From: Candidatus Eiseniibacteriota bacterium
GTDB lineage: Bacteria > Eisenbacteria > RBG-16-71-46
DNA length: 64,000 nt
NCBI GenBank assembly: GCA_963707915.1
Contig: OY970178.1
Span: forward strand, 1,120,001-1,184,000
Direction: 5' to 3'
In this document: positions 7,439 through 64,000 of the stretch, one piece after another
Layout of the letters: each line of letters begins with the position of its first letter
How positions within the stretch are numbered: the stretch's first letter is position 1
Notes under the pieces: model-generated
The model's database searches: none
The model's input: only the letters and a program-made list of their open reading frames with translations
What the model was told of the DNA's origin: nothing
Translations under genes and position numbers: made by a program

Positions 7439-7465
7439 GCGTCGGCAGAAGGCGTGGGACCTTGA
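7439..7465 (-). promoter_or_regulatory. Putative sigma28 (FliA) promoter for the MCP
   Basis: TCAAG-N14-GCCGACGC on the minus strand, about 80 nt upstream of the MCP start. Confidence 0.7.
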
Positions 7466-7486
7466 GGCGCTCCGGCACGTCGGGCC

Positions 7487-7513
7487 TCAAGTCCCGCGCC
7501 CCTCCACCGACAC
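7487..7513 (+). promoter_or_regulatory. Putative sigma28 promoter for the porin/PBP operon
   Basis: TCAAG-N14-ACCGACAC, mirror image of the MCP promoter. Confidence 0.6.
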
Positions 7514-54414: not shown

Positions 54415-56637
54415 TCAACTGCCCGCGCTGGTCTCGAGCACCGCGGCCCGGCGTTCGGCCCGCACGCGCCGCATCCAGACCATGAAGCGCAGGCGCTCCC
54501 GCACCTCGAGGTCGCAATCCAGCACCACCGTCTCCCCACGCGATTGGGCGGGCCCTTCGATGGCCACGGGCGATCCGGGCGTGGCCTCCACGGGCTCCTG
54601 CGATCCCTCGACGGGCCCGGGCACCGCGACCACGGAGGCCGCTTCGGTCTCGAGGGCCGGTCCAGCCACGGAGGCCACTTCGATCACGGGGGCCGCTTCG
54701 GCCACGGGGGCCGCTTCGGCCACGGGGGCCGCTTCGATCACGGGGGCCGCTTCAGCCACGGAGGCCACTTCGATCACGGGGGCCGCTTCGATCGCGGGGG
54801 CCGCTTCAGCCACGGGGGCCCCTTCGATCGCGGGGGCCGTCTCTACCTCCGGGCCCACTTCGACCTCGCGGGTCGCCTCCATCGCCGGGGCCGCTTCAGC
54901 CACGGGGGCCACATCGATCACGGGAGCCTCGATGGCGTCAGGCTGCGCGACGACCGCCCGATTCGCGGTGGGCGATGGACCGGGATGCTGCGCCGCGCCG
55001 CCGGACCGGGCTTCGACTCTTGCCTCCATCAACCAGTCCAGGTCGAAGCAGGAGAACGGGATGCCAAGTCGTTCGGAGAGTGCGACCGCCTTCCTCGGAA
55101 GTCGCGGTCCGGGCTCGGCCCACCACGCTTCGAGGACCCGTCCTCCCAGCGGCAGCGCAGCCGCGCGCGTGACCTTCGGCTCGAGGGCCAGGAGCACCCG
55201 GTCGAAGTGCCCGCGCGCATCCTCGAGCAGCGCGCTCAGCTTGTCCCAGCACGCCGCCCGCCCGGGATCGCCGTGGGCCAGGAAGAAGAAGCCGGTGACC
55301 CCCGCCGCCTGCACCGTCCCCAGCAGCGGGATCTCGCCCGCCATGCACTCGCCGAGGCCCCAGCGCAGGTTCCCGCCGAAGCGTTCGTGCAGCCTCAGAC
55401 GCATCCCCGCGTCCACCAGCAGGACGCGCTCGCCCCGCTCGGTGAACCCGCCGGCCAGCGCGGCCGCGGCGTCCCCGATGCGCGCGCGGTCCGGTCCGCT
55501 CACGAGGTGAAGCCAACCCAGCTCCGCGTCCCAGGCCCGGAGCGCATCGCGGGACAACCGCTCGGCGCGCGGGTCCGGCGCGGCCCGGAAACCACGGGGC
55601 GCCCGCGCGGCGCGCCGCCGGGAGCGCCGCAACAGCCACGGCGCGGAAAGGACCAGGGCGAGCGCGGCCCCGGCGAGCGCGCCCGCCGCGGTGAGCGCGC
55701 CCCAGGTCCGCGCGACGGGGATCGCCCGCGACGCGGGCCCCCAGGTGCCGTGCATGAAGACCGCCGCGGCGGGGTCCGGGGCCAGGCGCTCGAGCGACAG
55801 CGCCCGCCCGAAGGCCTCGCTCACCACCGCATCGTACTGGGACCTGGACAGGCCCGCCTCGAGCGCGCGTTCCGCCTGGTCGAGCAACGGCGCACGCGTC
55901 CGTTCGTGCCACCTCCACGCCGCCTCGATCCGCGCGCGCGGGTCAGGCGCCGGCTCCGCGGCCAGGGACCTCAGCCACTCCCCCTCGGCAGCCGCGCAGG
56001 CGGTGAGCGCGGAAGCCAGCGAATCCGGCCGGGCGGCCAGGGCCAGGCGCACGACTTCGTCCTCGGCCCGCGTCAGCCGCGCCCGCTGCGCCACGCTGGC
56101 CGGCGTCTCGAACGGGGCCTGCGGGGCCACACGCAGGTCCACCAGGGCGACCAGCAGCAACCGCGCCCGGACGAGCACCGCGCACTGGCCGGCGGGCGGC
56201 AGCGCCGTCGTCACCGTCGGTGCGGGTTCGGCACGCCAGCGCTGGCGGGCCTCGGCACGGCGCGCGGCGGATGCGTCCACCCCGCTCAGGCGGCGACGCT
56301 GCAGGTCGCGGGCGAGGGCCTCCGTCCCCGTGGCCGTGAACGAACGCACGGCCAGCAGCGTGCGGTCCCGGTCCGCGACGGGAGCGGCCTGCTCGCCTGC
56401 TTGCCTGGGCCGCGGCCACTCCCCGGGGGCGGGCGGACCTCCCTGCCAGGCCACGCGGGACTCGAACAGGGGGACGCCGACGACGGCGAAACGCTCGGAC
56501 GAGATCCCCAGGAGGCCGGCGACCGGCAGAGCGGCACCCAGCAGGGCGCCCGCCAGGATCGCGACGCCCAGGCGTCCCCGCGCACCGGGTCGGCGGGTGG
56601 CGTCCGGAGGATGGGTGGCGTCTTCCCTGGCGCTCAT
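54415..56637 (-). CDS. Membrane protein with degenerate Wzc/CpsD-like P-loop domain and acidic repeat tail
   Basis: Two TM segments flanking a large loop; HLVSG...A..LA..F...[15 protein letters not shown] resembles BY-kinase domains. Confidence 0.55.
54630..54935 (-). repeat. Intragenic 18-bp tandem repeat encoding (A-P-V/A-I/A-E-A/V)n
   Basis: Recurrent plus-strand unit CACGGGGGCCGCTTCG(AT/GC); protein [18 protein letters not shown]... Confidence 0.85.
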
Positions 56638-60816: not shown

Positions 60817-61764
60817 TCAGGCTCCGAGCCGCTGGCGATCGCGACGTGCGTCCGCCGGCAGGCGCTCGGGGTGGGTCTCTTCGATCGGCGGCTCGGGCGG
60901 CGGCGGCGTCCACAGACGCAGGGCCAGGGCGCGGTAGGCCGCGGCGGCCGGCGACTGCGGGAAGGCGGTCACGACCGGCTCCTGGCGCCGCACGGCGCGC
61001 GGGATGGCCGGGTCCTCGGGGATCGCGCCGAGGGACTGGAGTTCGAGGTGCAGGAAGCGCCGGGCCACGAGCCGGATGCGGTGCGCGGTCTCCTCGGCCT
61101 CCTCGGCGCTGCTCGCCTGGCTCACCAGCAGGTACGGCGCCTTGCGGATGCCCTGGGCGCTCAGGACCTTGATCAGGCCGTAGGCGTCGGCGAAGGCCGG
61201 CATCTCGGGCGTCGTCATCACGATCACGTCGTCCGCGGCCAGGCACAGCGCGAGCGCGTCGCGCGTCACGCCCGAGGCCGTGTCCGCGATGACCAGGTCC
61301 GCCTCGCCGTCCAGCGTGCCGATGCCGCGCAGCAGGAGCTCGCGCCGGTAGTCGTCCAACTCGGCCAGCTCGGGCACGTCCGAGGCCGCGGGGATGAGGC
61401 GCACGCCGCCCGGCCCGTCCACCAGGACCTCCTCGAGCGTGCGCTCGCCGGCGAGCACGTGCTGCAGGTCGTAGCGCGGGTGGACCCCCAGCAACAGGTC
61501 GAGGTTGGCCTGCGAGAAGTCGGCGTCGAGCAGCAGCACGCGCGCACCGTTGTCGCCCATGGCCACCGCCAGGTTCGCGCACAGGTTGCTCTTGCCCACG
61601 CCGCCCTTGCCGCTCGCTACCACGAGCATGCGGGTGTGCGGGCGATCCCAGTTCGCGGGATGGTCGTGGAACGCGCCGGACGGCGCGACCCGCGGCATGA
61701 CGCGCAGCGGCCCCGCCGGGGACGGACCGCGGCGGGGGCCGCCGGAAGCGCGATCGGTGGCCAT
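60817..61764 (-). CDS. flhG: FlhG/FleN-like MinD/ParA ATPase
   Basis: ASGKGGVGKSN, LDAD...ANLD.LLG, PAAS, ADTASG, TTPE..A.ADAY.LIK; directly upstream of fliA. Confidence 0.85.
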   Translation of the reverse strand: MATDRASGGPRRGPSPAGPLRVMPRVAPSGAFHDHPANWDRPHTRMLVVASGKGGVGKSNLCANLAVAMGDNGARVLLLDADFSQANLDLLLGVHPRYDLQHVLAGERTLEEVLVDGPGGVRLIPAASDVPELAELDDYRRELLLRGIGTLDGEADLVIADTASGVTRDALALCLAADDVIVMTTPEMPAFADAYGLIKVLSAQGIRKAPYLLVSQASSAEEAEETAHRIRLVARRFLHLELQSLGAIPEDPAIPRAVRRQEPVVTAFPQSPAAAAYRALALRLWTPPPPEPPIEETHPERLPADARRDRQRLGA

Positions 61765-62021
61765 CAGTGGCCTGCGCCCGACCGGGTGGCGCGGGACCGT
61801 GGCGCGGCCGGCAGCGCGAAGAGCGCCGAGAGGAACTCCCAGTAGCGCAGCTGCTCGCGGCAGCGGTGCAGCGGCTCCTCGAGGCCGAGCCGCTCCAGGC
61901 GGCGCTCCTCCTCGCGCAACGAGGCCAGCGCGGCGCGCGACTGGTCGGCGCGCAGCGCGGGCGTGGGCGGGATGGCGCGGCGCGGGTCGGAGCGGGACGT
62001 GAGCGCGGGCTGGCGGTTCAC
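61764..62021 (-). CDS. Hypothetical 85-aa helical protein
   Basis: GTG overlaps the upstream stop and its stop overlaps the flhG ATG; amphipathic LASLREEERRLERLGL...QLRYWEFLSALF. Confidence 0.6.
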   Translation of the reverse strand: MNRQPALTSRSDPRRAIPPTPALRADQSRAALASLREEERRLERLGLEEPLHRCREQLRYWEFLSALFALPAAPRSRATRSGAGH

Positions 62022-62326
62022 GACGCCCTCCGCAGGCGCGCGGCCGGGGTCGCGAAGCGCGGCAGGCCCGCCCGCGCGACGCCGCCGCCGACCCGCTCGC
62101 GAAGCTGCGAGAGCAGCGCGGCGTAGGAGCGCTCGATGCGGGCGGCCGGGACGCCGAGCACGCTCGCCGCCTCGGAGGGCGTCAGGCGCTCGAAGAGCAG
62201 CAGGGCGAGGAGCACGCGTTCGCGCACGGCGCACCCGCTGAGGGCGCGTGCCACGACCTCGCGGCAGTCGTGCCGGGGGAGCGCGACCAGGCGGTGCGAG
62301 GACGGGGCCGGACGGCGCGGGCGCAT
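62018..62326 (-). CDS. Stand-alone sigma70 region-4 (FliA sigma4-like) HTH protein
   Basis: RERVLLALLLFERLTPSEAASVLGV...RI aligns without gaps to the C-terminus of the neighbouring FliA. Confidence 0.7.
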   Translation of the reverse strand: MRPRRPAPSSHRLVALPRHDCREVVARALSGCAVRERVLLALLLFERLTPSEAASVLGVPAARIERSYAALLSQLRERVGGGVARAGLPRFATPAARLRRAS

Positions 62327-62727
62327 CAGGCGGCCCTGCGCTGCGGCCGCACGTCACGGAGGTCCGCCGCCCGCCGCAGCGAACGGTGCACGGCGTGGCG
62401 GAGCGCGTCCATGGCGAACGGCTTGGGGAAGCACTCGAAGACGCCGGCGGCGGCGAGCGCGCGCAGCGTCTCGGGGCTGCCGTAGGCGGTCAGGATGATG
62501 ACCGGTAGGGTCCGGCGGCTGCGCGCCAGCTTGCGGGCCAGGTCGAGACCGCTCATGCCCGGCAGGCGCAGGTCGGAGATCACGAGGTCGCACTGGTCCT
62601 GCTGCAGCCAGCCCAGCGCCTCCTCCGCGGACGAGAACGTGTCGATGCTGAAGCCGTCGTCCGAGAGCCCCTCGGCCAGGGCCCAGGCGGTGCTCGGTTC
62701 GTCTTCGACGATCAGGATGTGGGGCAT
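62326..62727 (-). CDS. Single-domain response regulator (receiver only)
   Basis: ILIVEDE, DLVISDLRLPGMSG, IILTAYG, FPKPF. Confidence 0.92.
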   Translation of the reverse strand: MPHILIVEDEPSTAWALAEGLSDDGFSIDTFSSAEEALGWLQQDQCDLVISDLRLPGMSGLDLARKLARSRRTLPVIILTAYGSPETLRALAAAGVFECFPKPFAMDALRHAVHRSLRRAADLRDVRPQRRAA

Positions 62728-62763: not shown

Positions 62764-62780
62764 TGCACCCCGCGTGCCAG
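62764..62780 (-). promoter_or_regulatory. Sigma54 -24/-12 promoter for the REC-sigma4-flhG-fliA operon
   Basis: CTGGCACG-CGGG-GTGCA, near consensus, 36 nt upstream of the first ATG and downstream of a bEBP gene. Confidence 0.8.
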
Positions 62781-63195: not shown

Positions 63196-64000
63196 TCAGA
63201 GGTCCTCGCCCGCCTCGTCCGGGTCGTCGCCGAGCGCGTAGTCCTTGAGCTTCGTGCGCAACGTCTGGCGCGAGATGCCCAGTTGCTTCGCGGCGAGCGT
63301 CTTGTTGCCACCGCACACTGACAACGCGTGCTCGATCGCCAGCTTCTCGACCTCGACCAGCGGCCGCACCACTCCGGGCAGGAACACCCCCGCCGCCGAA
63401 GCCGGGGCGCGGGGCCCCCCGCGCGTTCCGGTCACCTCCGGCGGCAGGTGCTCGACGCGGATCTCGTCCTCGGCCTCGAGCAGCACGACGCGCTCCATCA
63501 GGTTCCGCAGCTCCCGGACGTTTCCCGGCCAGGCGTAGTCGAGCAGCACGCGCAGGGCGTCGGGGTGCAGCCGCGCCGTGGGGCGGCCCAGCTCGCGGCA
63601 GAACTGGGCGACGAAATGCTCGGCCATGAGCGGCACGTCCTCACGGCGCTCGCGCAGCGGCGGCACCTCGATGGGGACCACGTTGAGGCGGAAGTAGAGG
63701 TCCTCGCGGAAGCGCCCCTCCGCCACCGCCTTCGGCAGGTCGCGGTGGGTGGCGGCGATGACGCGCACGTCCACGGTGATGTCGCTCCCGCCGCCCACGC
63801 GGCGGAAGGTGCGGGTCTCGAGGACGTGGAGCAGCTTGGCCTGCAGGCCCGGGGTCATCTCGCCGATCTCGTCGAGGAACAGCGCGCCGCCGTCGGCCAG
63901 CTCGAAGAGGCCCTTCTTGAAGCGCTTGGCGTCGGTGAAGGCGCCCTTCTCGTGTCCGTACAGCTCGCTCTCCAGCAACTGCTCGGGGATGGCGCTGCAG
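63196..64000 (-). CDS. Sigma54-dependent enhancer-binding protein (AAA+ and Fis HTH; 5' end outside the window)
   Basis: [57 protein letters not shown]. Confidence 0.93.

Follow-up and report, generated by a model that had tools for sequence, protein, structure and literature searches.

A conserved stand-alone sigma4 protein of the sigma-28 type, encoded next to a receiver in Candidatus Eisenbacteria: a possible decoy for a FlgM-like anti-sigma factor

The DNA analysed here, called the window throughout, is a stretch of 64,000 nucleotides from a genome of the Candidatus Eisenbacteria (assembly GCA_963707915.1, contig OY970178.1, forward-strand positions 1,120,001 to 1,184,000), with a G+C content of 73.6%. 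On its minus strand we found a small gene, SIG4, whose product consists of a single sigma4 domain of the sigma-28 (FliA/WhiG) type. SIG4 stands between a gene for a single-domain receiver (REC) and one for a short helical protein (ORF85), which are followed by the genes of an FlhG-like ATPase and of a FliA-type sigma factor (FliA1). The protein is conserved together with its neighbours, it has lost the DNA-contact residues that FliA1 conserves, and its block of genes begins with a FlgM-like gene. We tentatively propose, as something a little short of an even chance, that SIG4 is a sigma4 decoy for the FlgM-like anti-sigma factor, gated by the receiver.

The first-pass annotation of this DNA, made from its letters alone, had described SIG4 as a stand-alone paralog of the FliA sigma4 domain, aligning without gaps with the FliA C-terminus, and both statements were borne out. 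With MAFFT, residues ~19-81 of SIG4 fell gap-free on residues 223-286 of FliA1, and hhalign joined the SIG4 family (an alignment of 27 rows) to the FliA1 family (15 rows, from 19 sequences) with a probability of 96.8% and E = 2.4e-10 in a gap-free stretch of 64 columns. Within the same genome, the closest match to SIG4 apart from itself was FliA1 (tblastn E = 7e-5; profile 46 bits, E = 6.9e-12), ahead of a second FliA (41 bits) and of the extracytoplasmic function (ECF) sigma factors (37 bits at most). When the SIG4 profile was run against all the PDB sequences, the first eight matches were WhiG, FliA and SigF (8.7e-12 to 1.1e-8; WhiG at 8.7e-12, FliA at 1.1e-10), and lower matches included the best-placed ECF sigma factor, CnrH (2e-6), DevR (4.4e-5), PhyR (7.6e-5) and FixJ (0.09). 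Searched as a single sequence, SIG4 was weak in Pfam (Sigma70_r4, E = 0.022, below the cut-off), and in NCBIfam it matched the sigma70-ECF (9e-7), WhiG (3e-5) and FliA_WhiG (7e-5) models, always at their sigma4 end. Because the generic ECF model is slightly better there than the FliA and WhiG ones, the attribution of SIG4 to FliA rests on the profile-level results.

In the AlphaFold2 model (pLDDT 79.6 overall, 89-97 in the core), residues 21 to 86 form four helices, flanked by disordered, arginine-rich tails. The model contains what makes up a sigma4 domain, that is, regions 4.1 and 4.2 as four helices with a helix-turn-helix. Its best Foldseek match was the Aquifex sigma-28 in complex with FlgM (1rp3), at 1.0 rmsd (root-mean-square deviation) over 61 columns, 30% identity and E = 8.7e-3, and on WhiG (7lq4) the rmsd was 0.9; so small a domain gives weak E-values. 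The identity in these superpositions was 29-32% to the sigma4 domains of sigma-28 and WhiG, against 16-22% to those of ECF sigma factors. Sigma2 and sigma3 are absent, as previously noted: only residues 21-86 of 102 are folded, which leaves no room for either, and all the family-model matches lie at the sigma4 end. Therefore, SIG4 cannot be a sigma factor on its own.

SIG4 is a real gene. When the G+C content at third codon positions (GC3) is plotted by frame, the minus strand displays three successive coding frames across 62727-61764, and SIG4 has a GC3 of 0.96 in its own frame, with a clean frame switch at either end. The junctions REC/SIG4, SIG4/ORF85 and ORF85/FlhG-like read TGATG, GTGA and TGATG respectively, so every stop codon shares bases with the following start. 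The overlap of the SIG4 ATG with the REC stop, already reported in the first-pass annotation, is of one base, 62326 (ATG at 62326-62324, TGA at 62328-62326). At the other end of SIG4, the C-terminal RLRRAS (62018-62040, minus strand; CGG AGG GCG TCG TGA) coincides with the ORF85 start codon and its GGAGG Shine-Dalgarno sequence, and its conservation at the protein level may thus be imposed by the overlapping translation signals of ORF85. REC keeps D9, D52, T80 and K102, with the phospho-acceptor and switch residues at least 90% conserved among 19 orthologs, and its closest NCBIfam models are NtrC-type receivers. The gene immediately upstream of REC codes for a sigma54 activator, and between the two there is a sigma54-type promoter element. 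Taken alone, such an element is at chance level: with one mismatch allowed, the window has 2 where 2.8 would be expected. Reading the upstream sequences by eye, however, we found TGGCA(C/T)-N6-TGC 50-70 nt upstream of the receiver in all 19 loci of two families of the phylum, here called f1 and f3.

Regarding the range of SIG4, a word-index search gave 81 relatives, nearly all of 98-117 residues and many of them named 'sigma24 family protein' by one source. An exhaustive profile search gave 118 cluster representatives at E ≤ 1e-10, mostly of 80-135 residues, and those inspected were either true family members or truncated FliA or ECF calls. Seven of the eight related loci retrieved with a narrow alignment belonged to Candidatus Eisenbacteria, and a search of sequencing runs returned only runs with 5-10% of the words. 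The genomes compared below are kin, mostly fragmented metagenome-assembled genomes, and their counts reflect one or two evolutionary events; the unpublished genome G026 is included in the tallies of range and co-occurrence, and no claim is based on it alone.

The order activator-REC-SIG4-ORF85-FlhG-FliA was recovered by tblastn in 17 of 20 loci of relatives. Regarding the other three, SIG4 in one and ORF85 in another were found by other searches only, and the last, from a third family (f2), is genuinely different. The whole conserved block runs from the FlgM-like gene through a histidine kinase and the activator to the sigma54 promoter, and then through REC, SIG4, ORF85, FlhG-like, FliA1, a DHp-only protein, a GGDEF protein and a hybrid kinase. 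For SIG4, 17 of 19 loci offer a start that overlaps the REC stop; in 17 of 17, ORF85 either overlaps SIG4 or is at most 2 nt away from it; and for FlhG, 15 of 18 offer a start that overlaps the ORF85 stop. Since the script took whichever start was closest to the preceding stop, these figures count available overlaps rather than proving them. With this conservation across two Eisenbacteria families, SIG4 is not a decaying, non-conserved duplicate, which the first-pass annotation had named among the findings that would overturn its proposal.

The pairing of receiver and SIG4 is kept in the three families. In f2, the SIG4-like gene is closer to FliA and has a YYYE motif, with neither ORF85 nor FlhG nor FliA adjoining. 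Since f2 has the pairing without ORF85, the receiver and the sigma4 protein are the older core and the hairpin protein is a later addition. In f3 (G035), REC, SIG4 and ORF85 are followed by ~350 nt of non-coding DNA before FlhG-FliA, a gap which suggests that the three genes are the functional unit. The f2 loci (L023 = G027:C63:7000-15500; L054; L055) have the order activator, orthologous receiver, CheY-like receiver and SIG4-like gene, and in G027 a CheR-like methyltransferase is placed between the two receivers and an AMIN/TPR-like protein after the SIG4-like gene.

Some other arrangements of sigma4-like domains were found in these searches. The protein P0194 (374 aa) consists of four tandem, nearly identical sigma4-like helix-turn-helix repeats of ~60 residues each, and in P0253, P0276 and P0317 (433-500 aa) an ECF-like sigma factor or its sigma4 is fused N-terminally to a complete FliA-like sigma factor ('LYYYEQMTMKEIG...SESRVSQ'). 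A second sigma4-only open reading frame (ORF) in the window's genome, 2155123-2155392, was rejected, because it looks like the C-terminal end of an ordinary ECF sigma factor.

The residues that read DNA were compared in one alignment of 19 SIG4 orthologs and the 19 neighbouring FliA1 sequences. Residues 59-65 of SIG4 (VPAARIE) are the most variable folded segment, with top-residue frequencies of 32-58%, whereas the FliA1 residues aligned to them (ISESRVS, in ISESRVSQVH) are 100% invariant in 19 genomes. This alignment agrees with the replacement of SESRVSQ by PAARIER that had been pointed out earlier in the -35-reading helix. Furthermore, the invariant or nearly invariant basic residues K256, R260, R268, R275, R279 and R283 of FliA1 are not kept in SIG4. 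The conserved -35-reading residues of helix 4.2 are thus missing from it, and its best-kept positions are L29, E36, R37, L40, A41, L42, E46, L48, E52, A53, A54, L57, G58, R66 and L75.

These results bear on a different explanation, in which SIG4 binds DNA as an ordinary helix-turn-helix output and the separate receiver controls its activity, as in a NarL/FixJ regulator cut in two or a stand-alone GerE, with flhG-fliA1 or other genes as targets. The helix-turn-helix fold is intact and the DNA-binding domains of DevR/DosR and FixJ do match the SIG4 profile, but this profile is 5-6 orders of magnitude nearer to the sigma4 of sigma-28 than to the NarL-type helix-turn-helix, and Pfam GerE was absent among the SIG4 matches at E ≤ 1. 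R63, R66 and the basic tails could touch DNA; nevertheless, the six basic residues of the FliA1 sigma4 are lost, and the start of the recognition helix is precisely the least conserved folded segment, although orthologous DNA readers normally keep theirs. Two genes with overlapping stop and start are the expected look of a split regulator, and the pairing predates ORF85. Regarding fused forms of REC and SIG4, which the first-pass annotation proposed to look for in relatives, none was found among the longer proteins in what was a weak search; its one match, a 205-aa call with an unrelated Pfam domain on a contig of 851 bp, is probably a gene-calling artefact. On balance, we consider a split response regulator unlikely.

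The surface of sigma4 that binds FlgM behaves differently from the DNA-reading helix. In the sigma-28 of Pseudomonas aeruginosa (Pa), the sigma4 contacts to FlgM are reported to be L187, I191, L200, A203, L204, Y206, E209 and L210, the bases are read by S224 and Q228, and L204R is the strongest binding mutant, which raises the Kd for FlgM from 2.2 to 422 nM with little effect on motility and no harm to sigma function (PMC12784957). We transferred these positions through the phmmer alignment of FliA1 to 9wsf_A and the numbering of that paper (FliA1 = Pa + 43). The SIG4 equivalents, with their frequencies, are V25 for L187 (37%), L29 for I191 (95%), V38 for L200 (32%), A41 for A203 (84%), L42 for L204 (84%), L44 for Y206 (79%, a change from Tyr to Leu), R47 for E209 (74%) and L48 for L210 (95%). 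Those of the base readers are A62 for S224, which is variable, and R66 for Q228 (84%, Arg and not Gln). Hence SIG4 has four of the eight contact equivalents among its best-kept positions, and it has lost one polar contact as well as the base readers. Such a pattern fits a decoy without deciding the matter, since these hydrophobic residues help to build any sigma4 core.

A candidate target for such a decoy is encoded in the same block. The Pfam and TIGRFAM models of FlgM gave nothing convincing in the window's genome. We built an Eisenbacteria FlgM alignment from three genomes that scored with the standard models, and its profile detected two relatives, which answers the earlier suggestion to find flgM in this genome. 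One of them, FlgM2 (1713732-1714070 in genome coordinates, E = 3e-12), is a full-length FlgM relative. The other (match at 1185870-1186001, E = 2.8e-4) is the FlgM-like ORF at the head of the block, just past the end of the window, ~3.5 kb upstream of SIG4 and ~20 nt upstream of the kinase of the activator. In ~20 relatives the same profile matches this syntenic spot, which shares contig and strand with SIG4 and lies 3.3-3.9 kb upstream of it. An alignment of the FlgM-like family (13 rows, C-terminal 62 residues) was joined by hhalign to the canonical Eisenbacteria FlgM with a probability of 97.5% (E = 7.6e-12, 43 columns), and its profile found the gene in all 15 f1 loci that reach far enough upstream, 12 of them being in the profile itself and three (L013, L014 and L022) independent. 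The idea that ORF85 and SIG4 had replaced FlgM, prompted by apparently complementary distributions, was dropped, since FlgM relatives occur in 35 of 41 genomes, that of the window included.

The first-pass annotation had also called FliA1 the operon's own FliA. It is in fact one of two FliA paralogs, and according to Pfam the window contains no flagellar structural genes; apart from one chemoreceptor (MCP) gene, its remainder holds housekeeping genes. A canonical flhA-flhF-flhG-fliA set, the second in this genome (C1:1687929-1692574), is located beside flgF, flgG, flgH and flgI-like genes, 24 kb from FlgM2. DQAxxLR is the FlhF-activating motif; the second FlhG starts with MDQAAALRSL, and the FlhG-like ATPase of the window has no such motif at its N-terminus. 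FlhG2 and FliA2 appear as a single 610-aa frame in the ORF list. Thus, the family carries two FliA/FlhG/FlgM sets, only one of which is inside a flagellar gene cluster. This canonical set, the FlgM-like gene and ORF85 were all absent from the first-pass annotation.

The third component, ORF85, is obligate in families f1 and f3. Its profile found one copy in 79 of 86 f1 genomes and in 7 of 9 f3 genomes (one of these being G026), and none in 105 genomes from 16 other families of the phylum. Of the 30 genomes in which ORF85 reached E ≤ 1e-6, 29 have SIG4 directly upstream of it (28 of 29 when G026 is left aside), and in the exception, G002, both genes are at contig ends. Compared with the window proteins, identities were 43-75% for ORF85 and 34-78% for SIG4. 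The AlphaFold2 model (pLDDT 86, 93-97 in the core) is a hairpin of antiparallel helices, 21-45 and 48-68, after a short, conserved N-terminal motif with D12 and P18; the invariant residues are P18, L35, E38, R41, L42, R44, G46, C54, R59, W61 and F63. We found no match in Pfam or NCBIfam, nothing under E = 0.9 with the profile against PDB, and in the ESM Atlas unnamed clusters with scores up to 0.82. The 95 relatives found are all 'hypothetical protein' or unnamed. Structural relatives from Foldseek and VIA-align were discarded, as they are generic hairpins (Rop, designed bundles) whose Z, at most 8.5, is within noise for helical models. A role as FlhG/FlhF activator of the DQAxxLR kind was likewise discarded: 'ADQSRAALASLR' of the window protein is spaced differently, and its relatives do not conserve the Q. 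The cyclic di-GMP motif of RsiG was not seen in ORF85 by eye. A prediction of the SIG4-ORF85 complex scored 0.01 and is used neither for nor against any reading.

The tight link between SIG4 and ORF85 recalls SigO-RsoA of Bacillus subtilis, in which the sigma4 and sigma2 domains are reported on separate proteins (PMC8103513), RsoA being of 9.0 kDa (PMC10141391). By analogy, SIG4 would provide sigma4, ORF85 would substitute for sigma2, and both would start transcription at their own promoters with core RNA polymerase (RNAP). The order and sizes fit, with the gene of a ~9-kDa protein right behind that of a sigma4-bearing one in a single operon (PMC8103513, PMC10141391), all 17 loci have the two genes translationally coupled, 29 of 30 genomes have both, and helix 2 of ORF85 has an invariant aromatic cluster (Y60, W61, F63). 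However, RsoA has a region-2.3-like segment, whereas ORF85 shows no similarity to sigma2: its hhalign probability with the FliA1 family is 0.3%, Sigma70_r2 does not match, and its model has two helices only. SigO, moreover, is of ~22 kDa and SIG4 of ~11 kDa. The -35-reading positions vary among SIG4 orthologs, which is unexpected for a sigma factor with a conserved regulon, the conserved promoter of the operon is of the sigma54 type and not autoregulated, and the SIG4-like gene of f2 has no ORF85. A two-subunit sigma factor is therefore very unlikely in our opinion.

SIG4 might also be a protein-binding module with another target. The candidates would be the beta-flap of RNAP, in competition with the sigma4 of FliA1 or other sigma factors; ORF85 itself, as a new small NepR-like anti-sigma factor; the FlhG-like ATPase; or the sigma54 activator. 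The loss of conservation in DNA reading fits this explanation equally well, ORF85 is the gene most tightly linked to SIG4 and better conserved than it, with invariant charged surface residues (E38, R41, R44, R59), and in f3 the trio is set off from FlhG-FliA by the gap described above. Nothing points to any of these partners, though; the profile, structure and ESM Atlas comparisons that we ran revealed no resemblance of ORF85 to NepR, FlgM, RsiG or class I anti-sigma domains, and the FlgM-like gene kept in the block would be left unexplained. We judge another target to be quite unlikely.

The decoy scheme that we favour, whose binding steps and direction of control we infer, would work as follows. 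SIG4 would be the duplicated sigma4 of a sigma-28-type sigma factor, which gave up reading the -35 element and works through protein-protein contacts. The operon REC-SIG4-ORF85-FlhG-like-FliA1 would be transcribed from the sigma54 promoter, driven by the adjacent activator, and the FlgM-like anti-sigma factor encoded at the head of the block would hold FliA1. SIG4 would then offer FlgM a second sigma4 surface and titrate it off, acting as an anti-anti-sigma factor by mimicry. The receiver, phosphorylated by the kinases of the block or by the DHp protein, would set whether SIG4 is free to titrate, in a PhyR-like logic with both halves on separate polypeptides. A larger version, a partner switch of sigma-28 mimicry assembled from separate parts in which the receiver-controlled SIG4 captures the FlgM-like protein together with ORF85 and releases FliA1, seems somewhat unlikely to us. 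The decoy had been suggested in the first-pass annotation; the FlgM-like gene, the variable DNA-reading helix, the kept FlgM-contact positions and the pairing with a receiver in three families have strengthened it as a candidate mechanism.

Several observations weigh against the decoy. FlgM contacts sigma2 and sigma3 too, so a decoy with only sigma4 should bind it more weakly than FliA1 does, and the scheme assigns no role to ORF85, the gene most tightly tied to SIG4. The conserved hydrophobic positions of SIG4 would be expected in any folded sigma4, the equivalent of Pa Y206, which is hydrogen-bonded to E104 of FlgM, is a Leu, and the equivalents of L187 and L200 are merely loosely hydrophobic. 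Furthermore, R66 and Y68 (79%) are kept in the 'recognition' helix, and together with the Arg-rich tails they make DNA binding by SIG4 possible. As for the FlgM-like protein, Pfam FlgM matches only 3 of the 13 members (best E = 0.002, below the cut-off) and the family profile does not match the solved FlgM chains of the PDB. Finally, the second FlgM and second FliA of the genome make the true partners ambiguous.

The features of the block are listed in Table 1.

Table 1. Features of the SIG4 block. Positions are those of the window, unless marked as genome positions
Feature	Position	Strand	Evidence or remark
Hybrid kinase REC-GAF-HisKA-HATPase, 597 aa	56733..58526	-	Pfam
GGDEF-domain protein, 268 aa	58516..59322	-	Pfam GGDEF E 1.5e-24
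DHp-only (HisKA-like) protein, 131 aa	59506..59901	-	Pfam HisKA E 1.4e-5, 25.4 bits, cut-off 26.9
FliA1, FliA/WhiG-family sigma factor, 295 aa	59919..60806	-	TIGR02479 FliA_WhiG 242 bits, cut-off 189.6
FlhG/MinD-like ATPase, 315 aa	60817..61764	-	Pfam ParA/CbiA; NCBIfam MinD below cut-off
ORF85, 85-aa helical hairpin, GTG start	61764..62021	-	GC3 0.98, AlphaFold2; no known family
SIG4, sigma-28-type sigma4-only protein, 102 aa	62018..62326	-	Family models, profiles, AlphaFold2, Foldseek
REC, single-domain receiver, 133 aa	62326..62727	-	Pfam Response_reg E 3.2e-28
Sigma54-type -24/-12 element TGGCACGCGGGGTGCA	62764..62779	-	Exact match to TGGCACG-N5-TGCW; about 40-50 nt upstream of REC start
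Sigma54-dependent activator (NtrC-like), cut by window end	63196..64000	-	Pfam Sigma54_activat, AAA_lid_14, HTH_8
Kinase upstream of activator, beyond window	genome 1184559-1185839		
FlgM-like gene, 85 aa, beyond window	genome 1185861-1186118		

Pfam finds regions r2, r3 and r4 in FliA1, which matches the P. aeruginosa sigma-28 structure 9wsf at E = 5.6e-51. The gene of the DHp-only protein (H-box YHDINNAL) was unannotated; it starts 17 nt past the FliA1 stop, inside a spurious ORF of 316 aa, and its frame has a GC3 of about 1.0. This protein may be a histidine phosphotransferase that links the hybrid kinase with the receiver. The hybrid kinase is directly followed downstream by an ORF of 740 aa (54415-56637, minus strand) whose sole Pfam match at E ≤ 1 is one at 0.98. 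Upstream of the MCP gene we observed two sigma-28-like elements (7439-7513, minus strand) of the form (C)TCAAG/CTTGAGG ... GCCGAC, for instance TCAAG-N14-GCCGACGC, and the E. coli-type pattern TAAA-N13-17-CCGATA had no match in the window.

Whatever its mechanism, the trio of receiver, SIG4 and ORF85 is uncharacterised and strictly conserved, and it is now defined in an uncultured phylum. Together with the rest of its block (the FlgM-like, FlhG-like and DHp-only proteins, the second FliA and the diguanylate cyclase), it makes a testable set of six to eight small proteins.

Among the known systems, the nearest relatives of SIG4 in both sequence and structure are the sigma4 domains of the sigma-28/FlgM and WhiG/RsiG complexes, in which FlgM and RsiG are described as contacting mostly sigma2 and sigma4 (PMC7005675). 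Unlike those sigma factors, SIG4 lacks sigma2 and sigma3, and ORF85 resembles the coiled coil of RsiG in outline only, with no sequence match.

A closer parallel in the regulatory logic is the HsbA pathway of P. aeruginosa. HsbA is reported to bind FlgM, freeing sigma-28, within the HptB phosphorelay, which is tied to the diguanylate cyclase HsbD and includes a response regulator (HsbR), and HsbA is encoded beside flgM (PMC5085249). The SIG4 block has comparable parts, namely the receiver, the DHp-only protein, the hybrid kinase and the GGDEF protein. However, HsbA is a STAS protein switched by serine phosphorylation, whereas SIG4 has the all-helical sigma4 fold and no STAS family among its Pfam and NCBIfam matches, and no kinase or phosphatase of the RsbW/RsbU type was seen in the block. 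The earlier statement that no equivalent was known for FliA was therefore too strong: HsbA antagonises FlgM, although through a STAS fold and not through sigma mimicry (PMC5085249). The logic would not be new for FliA, and what would be new is the means, a sigma4 module derived from sigma-28. Among the titles and abstracts listed for FlgM anti-anti-sigma factors, for sigma-28 mimicry and for Eisenbacteria flagella, none mentions a sigma-28 mimic or decoy like SIG4.

If SIG4 is a decoy, its closest counterpart is the PhyR-NepR-sigmaEcfG system of the Alphaproteobacteria. To our knowledge, PhyR is the only described sigma mimic that antagonises an anti-sigma factor. In both cases a degenerate sigma-like module would serve as anti-sigma decoy under the control of a receiver, and each has genes for a small helical protein and for the target sigma factor close by; the sigma-like domain of PhyR is reported to have degenerate promoter and core contacts (PMC8103513). 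Nevertheless, SIG4 is not a PhyR protein, from which it differs in fusion, domain content and sigma class, and the NCBIfam PhyR model NF006623 gives only E = 0.021 on it, far under the 240-bit cut-off. PhyR is one polypeptide with ECF-type sigma2 and sigma4 fused to the receiver, whereas here the receiver is a separate protein, its gene joined to SIG4 by the one-base overlap, the sigma-like part is a sigma4 only and of the sigma-28 type, the candidate anti-sigma factor is FlgM-like and not NepR, and the phylum is another one. If true, the larger partner switch, with ORF85, would be the first sigma mimicry outside ECF/PhyR and the Alphaproteobacteria and the first protein-mimic antagonist of FlgM. 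A SIG4 decoy would mean that mimicry arose independently from a flagellar-type sigma factor and that a single domain with a detached receiver is enough for it; two-component signalling would then have one more known route to the control of sigma factors.

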